Positions 6,893-35,275 of a stretch of 64,000 nt of DNA are shown here, piece after piece (the first letter of the stretch is position 1; every line of letters starts with the position of its first letter). A program made the position numbers and the translations under genes. The notes under the pieces are model-generated. The model saw only the letters and a program-made list of their open reading frames with translations, did not search any database and had not been told where the DNA came from. Source of the stretch: an uncultured Candidatus Binatia bacterium (GTDB lineage Bacteria > Desulfobacterota > Binatia > Bin18); assembly GCA_965243855.1 (NCBI GenBank), contig CBDEWE010000003.1, positions 3,206,288-3,270,287 of the forward strand, in the 5' to 3' direction.

Positions 6893-9469
6893 ATGAAAAC
6901 CATACGGTGGCCCTGCTGGGGAACAGCGGCGCTCTTCATCCTGCTGGGAGCAGTGACGGCCAGACCGCAGGAAGTGGAATCGCCCGCGGAGGTCGTCGGG
7001 CTTGACACCTTGCAGGTTGTGGGGTCGCGTCTGGACAGGCGTTCGGCCCAAGACTCGCCAGTGCCGGTGGACATCATTCAGGGGGAGGACTTACAGACCT
7101 ATGGCATCCGGGACATGGACGCCCTGCTGTCCGCCACCGTCCCGTCCTATAACGTCAACCAGCATCCCATCGGCGGGGACGCCACCTTTGTACGACCGGC
7201 TAATCTGCGCGGAATGCCGCCCGACTCCACACTGGTGCTCATCAACGGCAAACGCCGCCACCGCTCTGCCGTTATTGCCTTCTCCGCGGACGGCAGCAAT
7301 CGCGGGACGCAGGGCGCCGACCTGTCTGTCATCCCGGCCATCGCACTGGAGCGGGTCGAAGTCCTGCGCGATGGGGCCGCGGCCCAGTACGGCTCGGACG
7401 CCATCGCCGGTATCCTGAACTTCAAGCTGAAGGAGGCGTCCGATGGCCTGTCGCTCCACACCAGTTGGGGCCAGACCTACCACGGTGACGGCGACAAGGT
7501 GAATGTCGCCGCCAACCTGGGTCTGCCGCTGACCGACAACGGTTTTGCCAACTTCAGCTTCGAGTTTCTGAACGCCGACGAAACCAGCCGCAGTATACAG
7601 CGCGACGACGCGCGGGGGCTGATCGAAGCCGGCAATATGCATGTGCGCCGACCCGCGGCCCAGATCTGGGGGGCGCCCGAAATCCAGTTCGACTACAAGT
7701 TCTTCGGCAACCTCGGCCTGGACCTGGAGGCGCTCGACGCCCAGCTGTACGCCTTTGGCAACTACGCCGAGCGTAAGGTGGAGGGCGGCTTCTTTTTCCG
7801 TAACCCCAACACGCGCGGCGGGATATTCAGGGGCGACCCGCTCGGAGACGGCACGCCCACCGTCCGGGTGGCCGACCTGTCCGGCACTGGCCTCGGCTGT
7901 CCCGCCGTGCCTGCCAACCCGGCGGCCGACTACACCGGCGTGAATCTGCCCGAGCACTGCTTCCTCTTCAACGAGCGCTTTCCCGGCGGTTTCACACCTC
8001 GTTTTGGCGGCTACCTCCAGGACTGGAGCATCGCCTTTGGCCTGCGCGGGGAATTGGAAGGCGCATACGGCTTGCTGAACGGTTGGTCATACGACGCCAG
8101 CGCCAGCTTCGGCTACAACAGTATTGATTTCTTCATCCACAACACCATCAACCCGCAGCTGGCCGCCATGCGCACCGCTATTCCCACGAAATACCGACCC
8201 GGTGGAAACGCGCAGTTTGAGCGGACGTTCAACCTGGATATTGCCAGACCCCTGGATATCGGCCTCTTCCACTCTCCACTGAACGTGGCCTTCGGATTTG
8301 AGTATCACATGGAGGAGTTCGAACAGAAAGTTGGGGAAGCGCAGTCCTGGTTCATCGATGAAAACCTGAGAAATCAGGGTTTTACCATTGGCTCCAACGG
8401 GTTTTCGGGCTACCCGCCGCAGTCGGCCGGCGTGTTCGAACGCAACAACTATGCGCTGTATCTGGACCTGGAAGCTGAAGTCATACAGTCCCTCAGCCTC
8501 GGCCTGGCCGGGCGATATGAAAACTTCGACAGTGCCATAGGAGAGTCGCTGAACGGCAAGGGGTCGGTCCGCTGGCAACTGCTGGACGCTCTGGCCCTGC
8601 GCGGTTCGGTCGGTTCGGGCTTCCGCGCCCCAACACCGGGACAGGCGAACATCCGGAAAATCAACTCGCAGTTTACCACCGCAGGCCTAGTCGACCAAGG
8701 CATTTTCCCCTCGCATCACCCGGTCTCGGCCTTCTTCGGAGGCAGGCCGCTGGAGTCGGAAAAATCGGTCAACTATTCCGTCGGCAGCGTGTTCAACTCG
8801 GGTGACTTCAGTCTGACCGTCGACTATTATCGGATCAAAATTCAGGATCGCATCGGACTGACGCAGGATTTCAGAGTCCCGGACGAGCAGCGGGCGGCCT
8901 TCAACCGCCTCGCTCCCGACGCGAGTACCCTCACCTCGGTGCGCTACTTCACCAATGCATTTGACACGACCGCGCAAGGGGTCGATATCGTGGCGACCTA
9001 TCCGCTGGCAACGCGGGTCGGTGACACCATGTTGACCTTTGCCGGCAACTGGAACCGGCTGAGGCTCGACCGCTTCGACCCGCACGTCATCAATACCAAG
9101 CAGGTGCATCAGATAGAGGATGGCTTGCCGCAATTCCGGTTTTCGCTGACCGCGGATCACACCTACGGGCCGTGGCGCTTTCTGACCCGCGTGTATTTCT
9201 ACGACGAATTTTTTGAAGCCCACGCCAACACCGAAACGCGTTTCCTGACCGCCGGGGAGCGGTGGCTGATGGATGTCGAAGCCTCGTACACCCTGCTGAC
9301 GCTGCCCTTCACCCAGGCAGTGATTCTTGCAGTAGGCGCGGAAAACGTGTTCGACACCTACCCGCGCAGAAATCCGTACGCGCGCGATACGGGCGCGAAA
9401 TACCCGGAATCCTCACCCTACGGCTTTGGCGGCGGCTTCTACTACGTACGGGCTGGCTTTGAGTTTTAA
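6893..9469 (+). CDS. TonB-dependent receptor (858 aa), paralog
   Basis: Same architecture (LDTLQVVGSR, plug motif, ...YYVRAGFEF end); stop overlaps stop of convergent gene. Confidence 0.85.
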   Translation: MKTIRWPCWGTAALFILLGAVTARPQEVESPAEVVGLDTLQVVGSRLDRRSAQDSPVPVDIIQGEDLQTYGIRDMDALLSATVPSYNVNQHPIGGDATFVRPANLRGMPPDSTLVLINGKRRHRSAVIAFSADGSNRGTQGADLSVIPAIALERVEVLRDGAAAQYGSDAIAGILNFKLKEASDGLSLHTSWGQTYHGDGDKVNVAANLGLPLTDNGFANFSFEFLNADETSRSIQRDDARGLIEAGNMHVRRPAAQIWGAPEIQFDYKFFGNLGLDLEALDAQLYAFGNYAERKVEGGFFFRNPNTRGGIFRGDPLGDGTPTVRVADLSGTGLGCPAVPANPAADYTGVNLPEHCFLFNERFPGGFTPRFGGYLQDWSIAFGLRGELEGAYGLLNGWSYDASASFGYNSIDFFIHNTINPQLAAMRTAIPTKYRPGGNAQFERTFNLDIARPLDIGLFHSPLNVAFGFEYHMEEFEQKVGEAQSWFIDENLRNQGFTIGSNGFSGYPPQSAGVFERNNYALYLDLEAEVIQSLSLGLAGRYENFDSAIGESLNGKGSVRWQLLDALALRGSVGSGFRAPTPGQANIRKINSQFTTAGLVDQGIFPSHHPVSAFFGGRPLESEKSVNYSVGSVFNSGDFSLTVDYYRIKIQDRIGLTQDFRVPDEQRAAFNRLAPDASTLTSVRYFTNAFDTTAQGVDIVATYPLATRVGDTMLTFAGNWNRLRLDRFDPHVINTKQVHQIEDGLPQFRFSLTADHTYGPWRFLTRVYFYDEFFEAHANTETRFLTAGERWLMDVEASYTLLTLPFTQAVILAVGAENVFDTYPRRNPYARDTGAKYPESSPYGFGGGFYYVRAGFEF

Positions 9470-10512
9470 CCTGACCGACGGGTCGGCTGCGGATCAGGCC
9501 GGGGAGTTTTCTCCGGAAAAAGGGCGTAGCCGGCGCGGGCCAGGACGATCAGACCGACCGAGTTGTAGACGGCCTCGCGTGCGCGTTTGAGAAGCATGAG
9601 CGTCAGACCGGCGCTCTCCTCAATACCGAGCAGACGGCAAAGGAAGACTCCACCCGCTTCACGCACCCCCAACGCGCCCGGGATGATCAACGCCGCGGCT
9701 GTGACGGGTTGAATCATGGTTTCAATAATGAGGGCATCCATCCAACTGACCGGTGCGCCGATCAGAACCAAAAACACATAGACTTCCACCGCCCCAACCG
9801 CCCAGCCCAGAAAATGATACAGGCTGGCCGCAATGAAATCCTTGGCGTCTCCGTCATACAAATGAAAGAGATGCGTATCGATGTGCTTGGCCCGTTCCTG
9901 CCAGTATGCCAGGCGGCTCCAGCCGGGAAATCGACGCCGTAGCCAGCCGACGCATTTTTCAACAAGACCCTGCTGCTGCCAGCGCACAATAACCATCACA
10001 AACCCGTACGCCATGACAAAAACGGCACCGAATATCCACCAGGCATGGTAGCCGATATCCAGGCGATACAGAAAAAACGGCAGGCCCAGCACGATAAAAG
10101 CAACCTGAGAGACGGTCAGGGCCGTCTTGGCAGCGACAACCGAGGCCGTACCAACATCGGAGGTCACGCCGTGTTGTCGCAGGAGATAGACCTTGACGGC
10201 CTCGCCACCGACATTCGCCGTTGGGGTCAGATTATTGATGGCCTCCCCAGCCAGTCGGGTGAGCGAAAGCTGAAGCAGGGAGAGCTGCCTGGCGGCCACC
10301 GAGCCGCCCATGGTATAGCCCCAGCCCTTGGCGTCAAACAGCGCCACAAAGCTCTGCGGGATCAAGATCAGGGGGGCGAGCCAGCCAATGTGGTAGAGAT
10401 GCTGGGCGACCTCAGCAATACCGACCTTCCAGAAAAGAATCCCCAGCAAACTGAGGCCGAGCAGAGCGGCGCCAAGCTGGAGGACCCGGCTCTTTTTCTG
10501 CGCGGCGGTCAT
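9466..10512 (-). CDS. lysylphosphatidylglycerol synthase TM-region-like / flippase-like membrane protein
   Basis: 348 aa, multiple TM helices, N-terminal MTAAQKKSRVLQLGAALLGLSLLGILFWKVG typical of the UPF0104/LPG-synthase TM family. Confidence 0.6.
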   Translation of the reverse strand: MTAAQKKSRVLQLGAALLGLSLLGILFWKVGIAEVAQHLYHIGWLAPLILIPQSFVALFDAKGWGYTMGGSVAARQLSLLQLSLTRLAGEAINNLTPTANVGGEAVKVYLLRQHGVTSDVGTASVVAAKTALTVSQVAFIVLGLPFFLYRLDIGYHAWWIFGAVFVMAYGFVMVIVRWQQQGLVEKCVGWLRRRFPGWSRLAYWQERAKHIDTHLFHLYDGDAKDFIAASLYHFLGWAVGAVEVYVFLVLIGAPVSWMDALIIETMIQPVTAAALIIPGALGVREAGGVFLCRLLGIEESAGLTLMLLKRAREAVYNSVGLIVLARAGYALFPEKTPRPDPQPTRRSG

Positions 10513-10535
10513 ACCTGGATTTCTCTAGGGAGCAA

Positions 10536-10587
10536 AAGAGTAAACGTGTCAACAGCTTTGTATCTATTGAAAGACACGTTTACTCTT
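10536..10587. repeat. palindromic element copy 1 (15-bp arms AAGAGTAAACGTGTC / GACACGTTTACTCTT, 22-bp spacer)
   Basis: Perfect inverted repeat 24 bp upstream of start of the 9466..10512 gene; same element recurs at 29109..29162 and 31398..31451. Confidence 0.8.
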
Positions 10588-10657
10588 TGCGGACGGGGGA
10601 AGGGCGGTACGGGCTGCAAGCAGTCGCTCTCTTGTCCGGGTGCGTGTCTTGGGTCTG

Positions 10658-11557
10658 TTACTCAGGGACTCCGGACGGAAGGCCGGCCATCTCTCGGATA
10701 ACAGTTGCCAGCGCGCCCCAGTCGAGGTCGCCCCGTCCTCTGGCAAAGGCGGCCCGCAAATGGTTGTCAGCCAAGTCGGCCAGCGGCAGGGGCGCGGCAA
10801 CATCTTTGGCCAGCTTTTGCATCAGCCCGACATCTTTCAGTCCCAGCGCCAGCGCAAAGCCCGCAGGAACAAACTCCTGCTTGGCGATCCGGCTGCCATA
10901 GCCTTGAAACAGAGGCACGGGCAGCAATGCTCGGATCAACTCCAGAACGGTCTCGTTTTGCAACCCACCCTTCTCGGCCAAGGTCAGCGCCTCGCTAATG
11001 GTTTCGATGCCGGCAATCACAAAAAAGTTCCCCACCAGCTTGAGGACATTGGCGAGGTGAGGCTCTTCACCCACCACGATAACCCCCTGCCCCATGGCCT
11101 CGAACGCGGGTCGGCAACGGTCGATGGCCGCAGCTGGGCCAGCCGGACAGATCCACAGTTTTGCCGCGGCCGCGGCCTCCGGACGGCCAAAGACCGGCGA
11201 GGCCACAAAATGCGTCCCCCGGTCGTGATACAGCGGTGCCAGTTCTTTGGTTACGTCGGGTGAGACGGTGCTCATATCAACGTGAATCCCATCCGGTTTG
11301 AGGCCGGCCAGAATGCCGTCCTCACCCAGCGTAATCGCCCGGAGCGCGGCATCGTCAGCAATAATGCTGATCACAACATCGGATCGCGCGGCCAACTCGC
11401 GGGGGGAATCGGCCCACTGCGCTCCGTTTTGGCGCAAGGTGTCGGCCCGTGAGGCCGTGCGATTAAAAAGCGCGAGGGGAAAATCGGCATCGAGCAGATG
11501 CTGTGCCATGGGCAGGCCCATCCTGCCCAGTCCGATAAAGCCAATTGAAGGGGTCAT
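10658..11557 (-). CDS. NAD(P)-dependent oxidoreductase, 3-hydroxyisobutyrate dehydrogenase / 2-hydroxy-3-oxopropionate reductase family
   Basis: IGFIGLGRMGLPMAQHLL Rossmann motif at N-terminus; ~300 aa; start chosen at internal ATG with RBS AAAGGA (ORF extends to 11629). Confidence 0.8.
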   Translation of the reverse strand: MTPSIGFIGLGRMGLPMAQHLLDADFPLALFNRTASRADTLRQNGAQWADSPRELAARSDVVISIIADDAALRAITLGEDGILAGLKPDGIHVDMSTVSPDVTKELAPLYHDRGTHFVASPVFGRPEAAAAAKLWICPAGPAAAIDRCRPAFEAMGQGVIVVGEEPHLANVLKLVGNFFVIAGIETISEALTLAEKGGLQNETVLELIRALLPVPLFQGYGSRIAKQEFVPAGFALALGLKDVGLMQKLAKDVAAPLPLADLADNHLRAAFARGRGDLDWGALATVIREMAGLPSGVPE

Positions 11558-24717: not shown

Positions 24718-24731
24718 GCGGCCTACAAGCG

Positions 24732-24815
24732 AAACCCACCCCGGCCACCCCTCCGAGGAGGGGAGCTTTTTTATCCCCTCTTGGGAGGGCTGCCGCGTAG
24801 CGGCGGGGTGGGTTT
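24732..24815. repeat. nested palindromic REP-like element with hairpin-plus-T-tract terminator
   Basis: Outer arms AAACCCACCCCG / CGGGGTGGGTTT; inner CCCCTCCgaggaGGGGAG + TTTTTTAT + CCCCTCttggGAGGG. Confidence 0.6.
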
Positions 24816-24851
24816 CCCAGCCCCTAACCCCCAATCCCTAACCCCCAACCC

Positions 24852-26529: not shown

Positions 26530-28932
26530 CTAATCCAGCACCTTCTCTTCTTTGAGCCGCGCAATCTCTTCCGGCGCATAGCCCAGCACGTCCCGCATGA
26601 TCTGGTCCGTATGCTGGCCGAGCAGTGGCGCGGGCGCGCGAACGCCGTTGGACGATTCGGCCAGTAACCAGGGGATACCCATATGCAGCCGGGGGCCGAC
26701 TTCCGGATGCGGCAGGCGCGCAAACGCTCCGCGCGCCTCCAACTGCTCGTCCTCCGCCAGGTCAGACGCACTCAGCGCCGGAAAGGCGGCCACACCCGCC
26801 TCCTGGAGCATCTGCGTGACTGCCCAGCGGTCGCGCTGGCTGGTCCACGCGGTCAGCAGTTTTTCCAGCTCGTCTTCGTTTGCTTTCCGGTCGGAAGCGG
26901 TATGAAAGCGCGAGTCACTCGCCAGTTGGGGCTCGCCCATAGCCTGACACAGGGCCTGCCATTCTTCGTCCGAGCCACACGCGATCGAGACCCAGGCGTC
27001 TTCTCCCGCGCAACGAAAACAGTTATGCGGAGCCATGACGGGGTCGTGGTTGCCGTCGCGCTCGGGCTGGGTGCCGTTCATGACGTAGTCCATCCAGCCC
27101 TCGGACACCAGGGCCGCCACCGCGTCAAACAGCGACACATCAATATACTGGCCCTGGCCAGTGCGTTTCCGGGCGACCAGTGCGGCACAGACTGCCGCGG
27201 CAGCGTGAATGCCGCTGTTCGGGTCGCCGTACGAAATCCCGACCTCTTGTGGCGAGCCGCCCTGATAGCCGCTCAGGGAAGATAAACCGCTGACCGGAGC
27301 CATGGCCGGGCCATAGCCCATGTACTTTTTCCGCGGGCCGGAATGGCCGAAGCCCGAGATCGAAGCCACAATGATATCCGGCTTGATCTGCTTGAGCTCA
27401 TCGTAGCTGAGCCCCAGATTGTCCATCACGCCGGTCGCAAAATTATCCACCACTACATCGCTCTGCCTGATGAGCTCTTTGATAATCTCCATCCCCTTTG
27501 GTTTGGCGACGTTGAGGAGCAGACTCTTCTTGCCCATGCTCCACTCGTTAAAAATACCGGAGCGATTCACCCCGGCTTCCATACCCTTCGGGTAGATCGG
27601 CAGCCGACGGGTAATATCCACCCGGGCGTTGGATTCGATCTTAATCACCTCGGCCCCCAGGTGGGCCAGATGCATGGTGCCAAACGGCCCGGCCCAGACC
27701 CAGGTAAAATCCGTCACCCGCACGCCTGCCAGGGGCAGACGGGAGTCGGGGGTTGGGGATTGGGGGTTGGAGGGACGTGACGGGCTTGGCAGTTCGGCGA
27801 AGACTTCGGCAGTATGCTCTCCCAGTTGTGGGGCGGGACGGCGAACCTGCCACCACGGCTCGCGCAGTCGGTAGGGTGCACCGAGCTGGGTCAGCTTGCC
27901 CGCTTTGGGATGTTCCACATCCACGAAAAACCCGCGCGCGCGGAGATGCTCGTCTTCGGCGAGCTGGGCCATGGTCTGCACCGGAGCAAAACAGATCCTC
28001 CGCTCCTGGCCCATCCGAAACAGCTCGTGCACCTTCTGCTGCTGGAACCACTCATCCAGATACATTTTGAGCACGTCCTGGTTCTTGGCCCGGTCTATCC
28101 CCCCTTGAAAAATCTCCCAGCTCCCCCACTCGGGATTCCCCATGAGGTCAACCAAGCGTTCCCACTGGTCCTCTTCCGCAACGACTAGAAAGATCAGGCC
28201 GTCCTGACACTCATAAATACCCCAGGGGTACAACAGCCGTTTGCCCAGGCGCGAGGCGACCCGCTCGCTATACGTGTAATGGACGAAGCTCTGTTCCATG
28301 AAAGAGGACACATAGGCTTGAGTGCTAAGATCAATATGTTCTCCACGCCCGGTCTCCAGCGCCCGATAATAGGCACCAAGCGTTGCGACCGTGGCGGCCA
28401 GCCCGCCTTGGAATCCCGTCTGCTGGCCATACGCCTTGAGGGGCGGCAGGTCCGGATAGTCCGACGCCCCAGGGCTCAACCAGGCCCAGCCGCCGGCATT
28501 GGCGACGGTGATGTCGTACGCCTTGTAGTCTTTATATGGCCCAGTCAGACCAAACGGCGTAATCGAACACATCACCAGCCGTGGGTTGAGTGCCCGAAAG
28601 GCCGGATAATCGATACCCAGTTCCGCCATCCGTGGTGGCGCATAATCATGGACCAGGATATCGGCCCACTGCACGAGTTGAGCGAGGCGGTCTTGCTCCT
28701 GCGCCACGTCAAGCGTGACACTGCGCTTATTGGTATTGAGGGATAAGAAGAGGCCGCTCTGCTCGGGGTCTGCTTTACCACCAGGAAAAGGCCCGCGCCA
28801 ACGGGACTGGTCGCCGCCCGGTTCTTCGGCTTTGACGACATTCGCGCCAAGGTCAGCCATGAGTTTTGTGGCGTAGGCTGCCGAAGCAAGATGGCCGAGT
28901 TCCAGCACTTTGACATCTTCGAGACCCTGCAT
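26530..28932 (-). CDS. tandem-fused CoA transferase family III protein (two CaiB/BaiF domains, 800 aa)
   Basis: Domain 1 MQGLEDVKVLELGHLASAAYATKLMADLGANVVK...; Pro/Ser linker; domain 2 LAGVRVTDFTWVWAGPFGTMHLAHLGAEVIKIES... Confidence 0.8.
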   Translation of the reverse strand: MQGLEDVKVLELGHLASAAYATKLMADLGANVVKAEEPGGDQSRWRGPFPGGKADPEQSGLFLSLNTNKRSVTLDVAQEQDRLAQLVQWADILVHDYAPPRMAELGIDYPAFRALNPRLVMCSITPFGLTGPYKDYKAYDITVANAGGWAWLSPGASDYPDLPPLKAYGQQTGFQGGLAATVATLGAYYRALETGRGEHIDLSTQAYVSSFMEQSFVHYTYSERVASRLGKRLLYPWGIYECQDGLIFLVVAEEDQWERLVDLMGNPEWGSWEIFQGGIDRAKNQDVLKMYLDEWFQQQKVHELFRMGQERRICFAPVQTMAQLAEDEHLRARGFFVDVEHPKAGKLTQLGAPYRLREPWWQVRRPAPQLGEHTAEVFAELPSPSRPSNPQSPTPDSRLPLAGVRVTDFTWVWAGPFGTMHLAHLGAEVIKIESNARVDITRRLPIYPKGMEAGVNRSGIFNEWSMGKKSLLLNVAKPKGMEIIKELIRQSDVVVDNFATGVMDNLGLSYDELKQIKPDIIVASISGFGHSGPRKKYMGYGPAMAPVSGLSSLSGYQGGSPQEVGISYGDPNSGIHAAAAVCAALVARKRTGQGQYIDVSLFDAVAALVSEGWMDYVMNGTQPERDGNHDPVMAPHNCFRCAGEDAWVSIACGSDEEWQALCQAMGEPQLASDSRFHTASDRKANEDELEKLLTAWTSQRDRWAVTQMLQEAGVAAFPALSASDLAEDEQLEARGAFARLPHPEVGPRLHMGIPWLLAESSNGVRAPAPLLGQHTDQIMRDVLGYAPEEIARLKEEKVLD

Positions 28933-29108: not shown

Positions 29109-29162
29109 AGAGAGTAAACATGTTCTGCACCGATTCCAAGCTGTTGTACACGTTTACTCTTT
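29109..29162. repeat. palindromic element copy 2 (AGAGTAAACATGT ... ACACGTTTACTCT, one mismatch, 24-bp spacer)
   Basis: In divergent promoter region between fused CoA-transferase gene and SnoaL-like gene. Confidence 0.7.
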
Positions 29163-29211: not shown

Positions 29212-29679
29212 ATGCGTGGGATACGTCGTCGTCTGGTCATAGGCATCAGTCTGTTGGGCATCAGCCTGCTGTCCGGCATTGGGGGGGAGTCTGTGCGGGC
29301 AGATGATCTGGCCGACATCCAACAGGCATTTGAGGCGGATATCCGCTTGTTCAACGGACAGGACCCCACGGCGTTCACGGCCATAGCCCACGAGCATGTC
29401 GTCTTATTTGGTCCCTTATCTCCCTTTGCAGTCGAAGGCAAAGCGGCCATTCAGCAACTCGTGCAGGAGTATTTTACGAACCACGATTACGTCAAATGGC
29501 GTTCGGTCAACGCGAAATTCCTGGTGATTGAAACGAGCGGGCTGGCCTGGGGGCATTATACCGTGCGCGAGCAACCGCGGGTCGGGCCACGGCGAATACT
29601 GCACGGACGCTACACCTTCACCTATGCCAAGGAGGAGAACAAATGGCTGGTCGTTGCCTTGGACTTCTCACCGCTGTAA
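29212..29679 (+). CDS. SnoaL-like/NTF2-like (DUF4440-like) secreted protein
   Basis: 155 aa from ATG with RBS GGAGAGG; signal peptide; paralog of next gene (…GLAWGHYT…/…GVAWGHYQ…). Confidence 0.6.
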   Translation: MRGIRRRLVIGISLLGISLLSGIGGESVRADDLADIQQAFEADIRLFNGQDPTAFTAIAHEHVVLFGPLSPFAVEGKAAIQQLVQEYFTNHDYVKWRSVNAKFLVIETSGLAWGHYTVREQPRVGPRRILHGRYTFTYAKEENKWLVVALDFSPL

Positions 29680-30265: not shown

Positions 30266-31375
30266 CTAACTCATTCCATAAAACTGCTTCGCGCTCTCCG
30301 CTAAAACCTTGTGCTTGTTCTCGTCCGAGAGCTTTTCGGCAATCATTTGAGGGGCTCCAGGAAAGAAGCCGTCCGGGTGCGGATAATCGGTGGCCCACAG
30401 AATCTTTTCCGCGCCAACATAGTCCACCAAGTGGGCCAGGCTACCCTCAACCGGTTCGTACGAGATCCAGCACTGGCGCTTGAAGTACTCGCTCGGGAGC
30501 AGCGTGAGGGGTGAGTCCGTAAACACTCCGTGATCGTCGCAGTGGCGGTCCATGCGGTCCAGCCAGGGCGCAATCCAGCCACCACCGGACTCCAAGAACG
30601 CAATGCGCAACTTCGGGAAACGCTCGCACACGCCGTCCCAGATAATGCTCAAACTCGCCAGCATCATTTCCACGGTGTGCGAAACAATATGGCGCGGGGC
30701 TAGCTCCTCAAAGCGGTCGGCCCCCGCTGCCGGCATCCCGCCCGTCCCCTCGTGGATGCCGATGGCAAAGTCGAGCTCTTGGGCTTCGGCCCAGAAGACA
30801 TCGTAGTCGCGATGCCCCAGCATGCGGTCGTTATACGGGTTCGGACGCAGAAAGCCGCTCCGCATCCCCAGTTCATGCCGAGCGTAGCGCATTTCTTCAA
30901 TAGCCAGCTCGATGGATTGCATGGGCAGCATGGCCACCCCGAACAGCCGGTCGGGATAGGGCTGACAGTAGTCGGCCAGCCAGCGGTTATACGCCCGGCA
31001 GGTGGCCGCGGCGAGTTGGGGGTCTGCTATCGCCCCGGAAAAAAGGCCCAAGGTGGGATACAGAAAAACGGCGTCTATGCCGTCCAGTTCCATGTCCGGC
31101 ATCCGCGCGTGCGGATCAAAGCCGCCCTTCCGGCCTTCGGTGTATTTAATATCGGTCGAAGCCCGGCCGTCCCGCGCGCCAATGGCACCGGCAAAGCCCA
31201 GCCCTTTTTGCCCGCCCAGGACACGGCCTTCAATCCGCAGGCGCTCTTTGCCGTCCGTATCGACAATCAGTTCGGGCACACGGTCCCGGTAGGTCGGGTC
31301 AATATAGTCGGCCCAAAAATCGGGTGGTTCCAAGACGTGGCCGTCCGAATCAATAACATTATAAGTGCGACTCAT
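30266..31375 (-). CDS. amidohydrolase family 2 (ACMSD-like metal-dependent hydrolase)
   Basis: MSRTYNVIDSDGHVLEPPDFW...; RBS GGGAGGGA before ATG at 31375 (TTG ORF start at 31396). Confidence 0.8.
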   Translation of the reverse strand: MSRTYNVIDSDGHVLEPPDFWADYIDPTYRDRVPELIVDTDGKERLRIEGRVLGGQKGLGFAGAIGARDGRASTDIKYTEGRKGGFDPHARMPDMELDGIDAVFLYPTLGLFSGAIADPQLAAATCRAYNRWLADYCQPYPDRLFGVAMLPMQSIELAIEEMRYARHELGMRSGFLRPNPYNDRMLGHRDYDVFWAEAQELDFAIGIHEGTGGMPAAGADRFEELAPRHIVSHTVEMMLASLSIIWDGVCERFPKLRIAFLESGGGWIAPWLDRMDRHCDDHGVFTDSPLTLLPSEYFKRQCWISYEPVEGSLAHLVDYVGAEKILWATDYPHPDGFFPGAPQMIAEKLSDENKHKVLAESAKQFYGMS

Positions 31376-31397: not shown

Positions 31398-31451
31398 AAA
31401 GAGTAAACGTGTCGACATCTGCATGTCTATTGGAGGACACGTTTACTCTTT
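31398..31451. repeat. palindromic element copy 3 (AAAGAGTAAACGTGTC / GACACGTTTACTCTTT, 22-bp spacer)
   Basis: Divergent promoter region between amidohydrolase and dienelactone hydrolase genes; spacer GACATCTGCATGTCTATTGGAG ~64% identical to copy 1 spacer. Confidence 0.8.
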
Positions 31452-34093: not shown

Positions 34094-35275
34094 CTACCCT
34101 TCTAGACTTCGAGTGAGGTTTGTCACCATACGCCACGGCAAGGCAGGCCCGATTTCGCGGGTCTGATATTGGTCCCCGCCATAGACGAGATAAGACTGTC
34201 GCACCTGCTCTTTTGCCAGATGTTGATAGTATTCGAGCCCCTGAAAAAAATCGGCGTTCAGGGTAGCGCCGGATTTGATTTCGAGCGCGGTCACCTGATC
34301 GCCCCAGTCGACGAGCACATCGACCTCCTTGCCCTTGTGATCCCGCCAGAAATGGAGTGGCAACCGCTTGCGGTGGCGGGCGTTCCATTTGTACAGCTCG
34401 CTGACGACCCAGCACTCAAACAGGCTGCCCCGCAGAGTGTGCAGGCGCAGTTCGTCTGCTGAACGGATACCGAGCAGTCGGCTCGCGAGTCCGGTGTCGT
34501 AGAAATACAGCTTCGGTCGCTTGACCAAGCGTTTAGAGAAATTGCGGTGGTGGGGTGTGAGGCGGTAGGCGATATAGCTCGCTTCCAGAACGGAAAGCCA
34601 GGCATTGGCGGTATTATGGGTGATCCCGGCGTCGTTCGCGAGCCCGCTCAGGTCGAGCACCTGCCCGATTCGTCCGGCACAAAGCCGTACAAAGGTTTGA
34701 AAAACATGGAGATTTTGGACAGCCGTAATCTGACGGACGTCCCGTTCGACATAGGTGCGAATGTAGTCGCCGTACCAGTCGAGCGGGTCAAGGTCGCGGT
34801 CGAACAGGGGGGGATACTGTCCGGTGAAGAGCAGGTGATCGAGCGACGGAATCTGGATGTCTGCTGTTTGCAACTCGGCAAAGGAAAGGGGCAGGAGGTC
34901 GAACAGCGCCACTCGCCCAGCCAGCGTTTGCGAAATCCCGGCGAGAAAACCAAAGTGCCGAGAGCCTGTGAGGACGAAGAATCCCGGCTCTTGACGTTCA
35001 TCCACAATCCCCTGGATATAGGAGAAAAGGTCGGACGCCCTTTGGACCTCGTCGAGAATAGCGCCCCTGGGAAAGCCTCCGAGAAATCGTCTGGGATCAG
35101 ACAGGGCAAAGTCCAACTGGTCCGGATCTTCCAGGCTGACATAGGCTTTGTCTGGAAAAACCGCACGCGACAACGTTGTTTTTCCAGACTGGCGAGGTCC
35201 GGTTATGGCGATAACAGAATAGCTTTGCGCGGCTTGACGAAGAGCTTGAGCCACTTCTCTTTCGATCATAAGCAT
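34094..35275 (-). CDS. AAA-family ATPase with DUF4143 (COG1373-like)
   Basis: 393 aa; Walker A ITGPRQSGKTTL; typical DUF4143 C-terminal half. Confidence 0.75.
   Translation of the reverse strand: MLMIEREVAQALRQAAQSYSVIAITGPRQSGKTTLSRAVFPDKAYVSLEDPDQLDFALSDPRRFLGGFPRGAILDEVQRASDLFSYIQGIVDERQEPGFFVLTGSRHFGFLAGISQTLAGRVALFDLLPLSFAELQTADIQIPSLDHLLFTGQYPPLFDRDLDPLDWYGDYIRTYVERDVRQITAVQNLHVFQTFVRLCAGRIGQVLDLSGLANDAGITHNTANAWLSVLEASYIAYRLTPHHRNFSKRLVKRPKLYFYDTGLASRLLGIRSADELRLHTLRGSLFECWVVSELYKWNARHRKRLPLHFWRDHKGKEVDVLVDWGDQVTALEIKSGATLNADFFQGLEYYQHLAKEQVRQSYLVYGGDQYQTREIGPALPWRMVTNLTRSLEG

Follow-up and report, generated by a model that had tools for sequence, protein, structure and literature searches.

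A 54-bp palindromic repeat, probably a non-autonomous mobile element, in a Candidatus Binatia clade

Inverted repeats with a fixed spacing can be regulatory sites, and the CIRCE element (HrcA) is found at the promoters of a regulon that is small and coherent. The REP and REPIN sequences of Pseudomonas and Enterobacteria are mobilized by RAYT transposases, which are Y1 HUH enzymes (PMC3116915). The Rickettsia palindromic elements (RPEs), which are restricted to Rickettsia, are about 100 to 150 bp long and form about ten families, and nearly half of their copies, from three families, lie in open reading frames (ORFs) (PMC10969869). Typical bacterial MITEs are 100 to 400 bp long, carry target-site duplications, and have termini in common with a parent insertion sequence (IS), and they sometimes affect the transcription, termination, or mRNA processing of their neighbors (PMC10969869). 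Here we compare with these systems a palindrome that lies upstream of a membrane protein gene in an uncultured Candidatus Binatia bacterium.

Copy 1 and its relatives in the window

We analyzed a perfect inverted repeat within a 64,000-nucleotide stretch of Candidatus Binatia DNA (contig CBDEWE010000003.1), which we refer to as the window. The initial annotation had described 15-bp arms around a 22-bp spacer, 24 bp upstream of an ATG. A repeat finder recovered the perfect inverted repeat and the spacer but gave arms of 16 nt (10535-10550 and 10573-10588) that are 100% complementary and 22 nt apart. The position upstream of the gene was correct, while the distance was not, since 22 nt separate the 16-bp arm from the ATG at 10512. 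The gene had been labeled as encoding a lysylphosphatidylglycerol-synthase-like membrane protein, and the ORF at 9466-10512 on the minus strand matches Pfam PF03706 (LPG_synthase_TM; E = 1e-34), in agreement with that label. The locus contains the following features.

10535 to 10588, minus strand: copy 1, a 54-bp palindromic repeat that reads AAAGAGTAAACGTGTC-TTTCAATAGATACAAAGCTGTT-GACACGTTTACTCTTT on this strand
10535 to 10550, no strand assigned: gene-proximal arm of copy 1, AAAGAGTAAACGTGTC on the plus strand
10551 to 10572, no strand assigned: 22-nt loop of copy 1, a variant of the family loop consensus CTCCAATAGACATGAGATGCTG
10573 to 10588, no strand assigned: distal arm of copy 1, GACACGTTTACTCTTT on the plus strand
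9466 to 10512, minus strand: downstream neighbor, outside the element, a 348-aa membrane protein gene (Pfam LPG_synthase_TM)
10658 to 11557, minus strand: upstream co-directional neighbor, outside the element, an NAD_binding_2/NAD_binding_11 dehydrogenase gene

Copy 1 thus lies between two co-directional genes, 69 nt past the stop codon of the dehydrogenase gene and 22 nt ahead of the ATG of the LPG-synthase-like gene. Its oriented loop faces the LPG_synthase_TM gene, and its orientation matches that of both flanking genes, with an nhmmer score of 47.9 bits on the minus strand versus 26.6 bits on the plus strand. For RNA, the predicted folding energy is −30.6 kcal/mol (z = −4.9); for DNA, it is −15.8 kcal/mol (z = −6.7). 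An identical orthologous copy is present in L034 (L numbers denote sampled loci), and among the sampled loci the orthologous site was filled, with no empty one seen. If both flanking genes are co-transcribed, copy 1 would form a stable intercistronic RNA hairpin. With REP elements as a guide, such a hairpin could incidentally dampen read-through or affect the stability or translation of the mRNA of the LPG-synthase-like gene. Any such local effect on this gene would be a by-product.

A second copy had been reported at 31398..31451, and we recovered it with arms identical to those of copy 1 (31398-31413 and 31436-31451) and the same 22-nt spacing. The earlier inventory of the repeat was incomplete in that both a third copy in the window and the conserved, oriented loop had been missed.

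31398 to 31451, minus strand: copy 2, 22 nt upstream of the ATG at 31375 of an Amidohydro_2 gene
29109 to 29162, plus strand: copy 3, degenerate, AGAGAGTAAACATGTT...TACACGTTTACTCTTT, with two unpaired stem positions

Copy 2 occupies a divergent spacer between the Amidohydro_2 gene and a DLH-family gene. At the orthologous site in L109 (OZ219926.1), exactly the 54 bp are absent upstream of the same amidohydrolase gene, and the sequence is otherwise collinear. The arms of copy 3 (29110-29124 and 29147-29161) are spaced as in copies 1 and 2. This copy lies 49 nt upstream of the ATG at 29212 of a DUF4440/SnoaL-like gene and is kept at orthologous sites in L006, L106, and L109. When up to three mismatches were allowed, the 15-mer arm occurred six times in the window, against 0.83 occurrences expected, and none of 100 shuffles reached six. 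A search of the whole window against Rfam gave no match at the gathering threshold.

Two further observations concern the surroundings of these copies. Divergent from copy 3, a gene at 26530-28932 on the minus strand encodes an 800-aa protein with two CoA_transf_3 stretches, apparently a tandem fusion of two family III CoA-transferases. The window also holds perfect short inverted repeats at 24731-24816 (13-nt arms, 60 nt apart) and at 35150-35189 (12-nt arms, 16 nt apart), which have no relation to the 54-bp family.

A dispersed family with a covarying stem

We scanned one genome per species with the pattern GTAAACRTGT-N20-24-ACAYGTTTAC and obtained at least 113 loci. At least 106 of the matches listed come from 19 Candidatus Binatia-type assemblies, with several per chromosome; one of these assemblies is labeled Thermodesulfobacteriota but is syntenic with the others. 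Seven of the matches listed were in other phyla and had neither the flanks nor the loop, and we set these aside as chance palindromes. The spacing was nearly fixed, with 94 of 118 matches equal in length. The family unit is exactly 54 bp, or 18 codons, long and has the form AAAGAGTAAACGTGTCC-(loop)-GGACACGTTTACTCTTT, in which a 17-bp stem formed by AAAGAGTAAACGTGTCC and GGACACGTTTACTCTTT encloses an asymmetric loop, 20 nt long and conserved at its ends, and the consensus in oriented form is AAAGAGTAAACGTGTCCTCCAATAGACATGAGATGCTGGACACGTTTACTCTTT. What had been regarded as a spacer is this asymmetric and partly conserved loop, which gives the element an orientation. Information content was near 2 bits over the 54 bp and about 0 directly outside both edges, and the AAAGA and TCTTT flanks fell inside the conserved 54 bp even though the search pattern did not specify them.

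A sequence-only profile HMM applied to the 113 listed loci and the window identified 184 sites, 173 of them at E < 1e-3, and the profile search placed 170 copies in about 0.85 Mb of Binatia DNA. About 60 of the copies were additional ones within 8-kb blocks that had each been picked for one copy, and the local density is therefore about one copy per 10 to 20 kb. Extrapolated from this local density, a 4- to 5-Mb genome would carry roughly a few hundred copies if the neighborhoods are representative. A search of the literature found the core 12-mer in no relevant paper and no report of Binatia repeats.

The metagenome collection (JGI) contained 20 matching stretches (L114-L133), none of which was an autonomous element. 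These were mostly on contigs MKWU01 and LXNJ01, with others on Ga0209021 and JGIcombinedJ30088. We take the MKWU01 and LXNJ01 prefixes to denote marine-sponge metagenomes. The rarity of the repeat in metagenomes and its concentration in two WGS projects suggest a narrow habitat, possibly marine sponges, and Binatia MAGs have been reported from sponge holobiont assemblies (PMC12648040). We also noted that OZ219926.1 (L034, L109, L012, L112, and others) is labeled "Thermodesulfobacteriota bacterium." This taxonomic label looks inconsistent because the sequence has the repeat family and local synteny in common with the Binatia assemblies and the window.

We examined stem pairing in an alignment of 112 distinct copies that was made without a structure model. 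In the 17-bp stem, 94.9% of the cells were paired, versus 32 to 58% for slid partners. Changes on both sides had occurred at 9 of the 17 stem pairs, and there were 35 double-change cells versus 5.5 ± 2.0 in shuffles, none of 500 of which reached 35. Comparison of 74 orthologous pairs gave 23 double and 92 single arm differences, where about 4 doubles were expected under independence. The matched arm variants included GGAAAC/GTTTCC, GGGAAC/GTTCCC, GTCAAC/GTTGAC, and GTGAAC/GTTCAC, as well as CGTATCC/GGATACG, CGTGCCC/GGGCACG, and AATGAG/CTCATT. At one orthologous site (L020, L073, L112, and L082), the same unusual loop is found with four different, mostly compensated stems. These results show that stem complementarity is kept by compensatory changes, which points to selection on pairing. 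Such changes could instead be mutational, arising by template switching within quasi-palindromes and not by selection. Single-side stem changes on the element strand were G.T in 44 cases and A.C in 45; because the two are equal, an RNA on one defined strand is not indicated.

Empty sites, coding insertions, and genomic placement

About 35 filled/empty orthologous comparisons, representing about 30 copies, had flanks that were 82 to 97% identical and a gap of 54 to 56 bp that corresponded to the element. The empty sites close to within 0 to 2 nt. We detected no target-site duplication at k = 2 to 9, shifted boundaries included, and direct repeats were at chance level. These results show that the 54-bp unit is present or missing as an exact block and that its insertion leaves no target-site duplication, and the absence of a duplication over this range of k rules out a classical cut-and-paste MITE. 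A separate observation concerns L019:7029-7060 and L052:7122-7177. The L019 element breaks off within its loop, and from there on the locus no longer follows L052, to which it is otherwise 97 to 99% identical. A rearrangement or a break in synteny seems to have occurred within this copy.

At least six copies are genuine in-frame 18-codon insertions inside real genes, and they are found at the following sites.

L007:6915-6968: CoA_transf_3 gene; the Pfam domain spans the insert, and the orthologues in L021 and L064 are without the 18 aa
L066:3722-3775: MnmE gene; the Pfam domain spans the insert, and the orthologue in L013 is near-empty, with a 6-nt residual gap
L073:521-574: PDDEXK_1/AddB-like PD-(D/E)XK nuclease gene; the insert is within the domain, and the orthologue in L020 is empty
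L083:3612-3665: VWA_2 gene; the insert is within the domain
L083:5606-5659: MoxR gene; the insert is between the AAA and lid domains
L110:6689-6742 and L102:4886-4939: TonB-dependent receptor gene; the insert is in the post-Plug (barrel) part, and only Plug was matched

The L007 CoA-transferase reads NNQTP-RKRKRVLHTHEDAGHGSSF-QPVGN, where the orthologues in two genomes read NNQTPSEPVGN. Intragenic copies either use open frames or have lost the TAG of the loop. We left several "inside gene" calls, such as those at L084, L004, and possibly L009, out of the coding insertions, as they are artifacts or 3′-end extensions. The insertions in real genes show that the element tolerates in-frame residence in protein-coding genes.

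We counted placements in 111 orthologous groups using our own crude gene calls, which over-extend starts. By these calls, 96 of the 111 groups were outside genes and 15 were "inside" called ORFs, at least 6 of these as genuine coding insertions; 36 groups were co-directional sense, 21 co-directional antisense, 23 divergent, and 8 convergent. The median distances in co-directional spacers were 25 nt to the upstream stop and 30 nt to the downstream start. Copies tended weakly to face the nearer gene start (36:21 where the flanking genes are co-directional, 16:7 where they are divergent, and 52 versus 28 combined), and about 35% of the copies face away from the nearest gene start. In a replication-strand test along complete chromosomes, orientation was mixed within a few kilobases. 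Many copies are followed by an ATG 5 to 10 nt past the element. Because of these ATGs and the 52-versus-28 bias, some copies may have acquired a host function, such as that of an outward promoter.

The genes that adjoin copies are functionally unrelated and include rplT, tatA, fabF-like genes, and genes for metabolic enzymes. About 20 genes end at a TAA inside AAAGAGTAA (e.g., in L012, L033, L040, L045, and L078), and these genes take their stop codon from the repeat, which adjoins their 3′ end or stands in for it. Single genes are also found bracketed by copies on both sides (L012:5294-6241, L094:4055-4883, L092:3258-4757, and others), and, judged from their N-terminal sequences, the bracketed genes are enoyl-CoA hydratase-like, RadC-like, and FabF-like.

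The emphasis that the initial annotation placed on distance to the ATG implied a gene-specific cis-regulatory site common to two genes. Our results do not support such a site, because there is about one copy per 10 to 20 kb, because copies occur in all spacer types and within genes, and because orthologous sites can be empty. Copies also lie as near to stop codons as to start codons.

Origin of the repeat and comparison with known systems

Based on the sharp edges, the many copies, the presence/absence polymorphism without target duplication, the covariation, the indifference to context, and the tolerance of coding sequence, we conclude that copy 1 is probably one resident member of a mobile repeat family that is non-autonomous, forms hairpins, and is specific to a Candidatus Binatia clade. 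The repeat would have spread as a single-stranded DNA hairpin recognized in trans by a transposase encoded elsewhere. Because Y1/HUH enzymes of the IS200/IS605-RAYT type require hairpins and leave no duplications, we infer that one of them is the most likely mover. The copies that survive would be those that landed where little harm was done, either in intergenic spacers or in frame where a protein loop tolerates them. No transposase was found in the 133 loci and the window, about 1.1 Mb around about 200 copies, by a set of weak tests: tblastn with approximate sequences of E. coli YafM (RAYT) and IS200 TnpA; a YxxxNP[VL][RK] regular expression; and Pfam searches of small ORFs bracketed by two copies, in which the ORFs tested had no transposase domain.

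It is unlikely, but plausible, that the repeat is instead a distinct, ultra-short hairpin transposon that is moved by an enzyme other than a Y1 transposase of the RAYT/IS200 type or by a host process, that has its length and frames adapted to proteins, and that has been co-opted in part. Under this alternative, the length of 54 bp, a multiple of three, and the stop-free frames would be survival adaptations inside proteins, and the host would have co-opted copies as portable outward promoters or insulators. Co-option of this kind would account for the 65:35 orientation bias and for the apparently leaderless ATGs.

The mobile-repeat interpretation has to be weighed against functions that the palindrome could serve for its host at the level of RNA. 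We consider it improbable that the element is a host-serving RNA hairpin, whether a terminator, an attenuator, or an mRNA-stabilizing or -processing element comparable to REP sequences in operons or to SPRITE, in which case copy 1 would insulate or tune dehydrogenase versus LPG-synthase-like expression. The very stable predicted RNA fold of copy 1 is consistent with such a role, as are an A-rich 5′ flank and a UCUUU 3′ end like those of a bidirectional terminator, the many copies 0 to 30 nt from stop codons, the genes that end inside the repeat, and the maintenance of stem pairing in situ. However, neither strand has an excess of G.U over A.C, and, as the loop is 20 nt long and the U-tract weak, a terminator scan around copies 1 and 2 made no call. 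Moreover, only 8 of the 111 groups are convergent, and in the 23 divergent ones there is nothing to terminate; the presence/absence polymorphism and the in-frame coding insertions suit a selfish element better. A secondary RNA-level effect at individual loci is possible. A structured cis-regulatory RNA in the 5′ untranslated region of the downstream gene, such as a riboswitch, a thermometer, or a protein-binding leader, is scarcely credible. Its proximity to start codons, its covarying stem, and its conserved loop ends, which include an anti-Shine-Dalgarno-like CCUCC, would fit, but the element is one simple hairpin with no Rfam match and no transcribed-strand signature, and it occurs in both orientations, beside unrelated neighbors, within coding sequence, and at 3′ ends, with orthologous sites that can be empty.

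Two further readings place the function in DNA. That the element is a portable promoter, with a −35-like TAGACA in the loop and a −10-like TACTCT in the distal arm that drive the gene on the 3′ side, sometimes as a leaderless mRNA, appears very unlikely. The consensus does hold TAGACA-N18-TACTCT, there are genes that start 7 to 9 nt past TACTCT without a Shine-Dalgarno sequence (L003/L091, L017/L070, L058, and L059/L076/L088), and the orientation bias toward the nearer start points in the same direction. Nevertheless, TACTCT agrees with TATAAT at 3 of 6 positions, a sigma-70 consensus scan called no promoter in copies 1 and 2, and no part of the element is less conserved than the −35-like bases, which in copy 1 read TAGATA. 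The copies that face away from the nearest start, are convergent, or lie inside genes also argue against a promoter, as does the element-free amidohydrolase orthologue in L109, and the stem covariation would be left without a reason. We give very little credence to an operator for a dimeric transcription factor, in which the arms would be half-sites that co-control the LPG-synthase-like, amidohydrolase, and SnoaL-like genes as a regulon. In its favor, the arms of copies 1 and 2 are perfect and identical, all three copies in the window lie 22 to 49 nt upstream of a start codon and face it, and the arm sequence is highly conserved across genomes. A half-site model does not predict different arm variants within one genome that change together in both arms, and an operator is also at odds with copies that lie between convergent genes, at the 3′ ends of genes, or in frame within coding sequence, with the L109 amidohydrolase promoter that has no element, and with a copy every 10 to 20 kb beside functionally unrelated genes. 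In a comparison made by eye only, none of the attC, sigma-54, ECF-promoter, and IHF-site consensus sequences fitted the element consensus.

The palindromes at the LPG-synthase-like and amidohydrolase genes therefore define no shared regulon, and a tempting false lead is removed. Binatia are an uncultured lineage without genetics in which we found no report of this repeat family, and the repeat offers natural experiments there in the form of filled and empty orthologous sites, stems that have evolved compensatory changes in place, and enzymes with 18-aa in-frame insertions. It is a natural system for the study of hairpin repeats and a concrete target for finding the mobilizing enzyme in complete symbiont chromosomes. 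In addition, the repeat can be used as a strain or lineage marker and flags positions where gene callers over-extend or fuse ORFs.

The REP/REPIN sequences (PMC3116915) resemble the Binatia repeat in many respects. Both are short, noncoding palindromic repeats, mostly extragenic, that are present in about 10^2 or more copies, a number extrapolated for Binatia, and are vertically inherited within a lineage. In both, the inverted ends of about 16 nt do not vary and are separated by a less conserved spacer of fixed length, single-stranded DNA or RNA folds into hairpins in which compensatory changes are common, and the whole unit enters or leaves a site with no duplication of the target. The Binatia unit differs in being one simple 54-bp hairpin without a doublet or "clover" architecture. 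Its arms are not REP-type mini-palindromes, as each holds just a 4-bp ACGT palindrome. Its sequence is unrelated, about 5% of its loci are in-frame coding insertions, and the neighborhoods of about 200 copies, searched with approximate probes, gave no RAYT gene (PF01797), which in REP systems is single-copy and flanked by the repeats.

Like the RPEs (PMC10969869), the Binatia repeat is a palindromic selfish repeat that enters unrelated genes in frame, where it adds a short peptide and leaves the ORF intact. The differences are its length of 54 bp, its mostly intergenic location, its Binatia host, and the absence of sequence similarity. With the bacterial MITEs (Correia/CREE, ERIC, SPRITE, and Chunjie; PMC10969869) it shares a small size, a non-autonomous nature, terminal inverted repeats, which in the Binatia repeat are perfect and 16 to 17 nt long, and a mainly intergenic location. 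In contrast to the MITEs, it has no target-site duplication, its stem covaries instead of being simply conserved, and no parent IS or transposase was seen in the sampled Binatia loci. The resemblance to CIRCE lies in a perfect inverted repeat with fixed spacing that is conserved across genomes and located upstream of genes, whereas the Binatia repeat is dispersed, mobile, and partly intragenic, with arms that covary. The Binatia repeat is thus not a strict member of the REP/REPIN, MITE, or RPE class, and we rate it as a new family of a known kind of element and not as a new principle.
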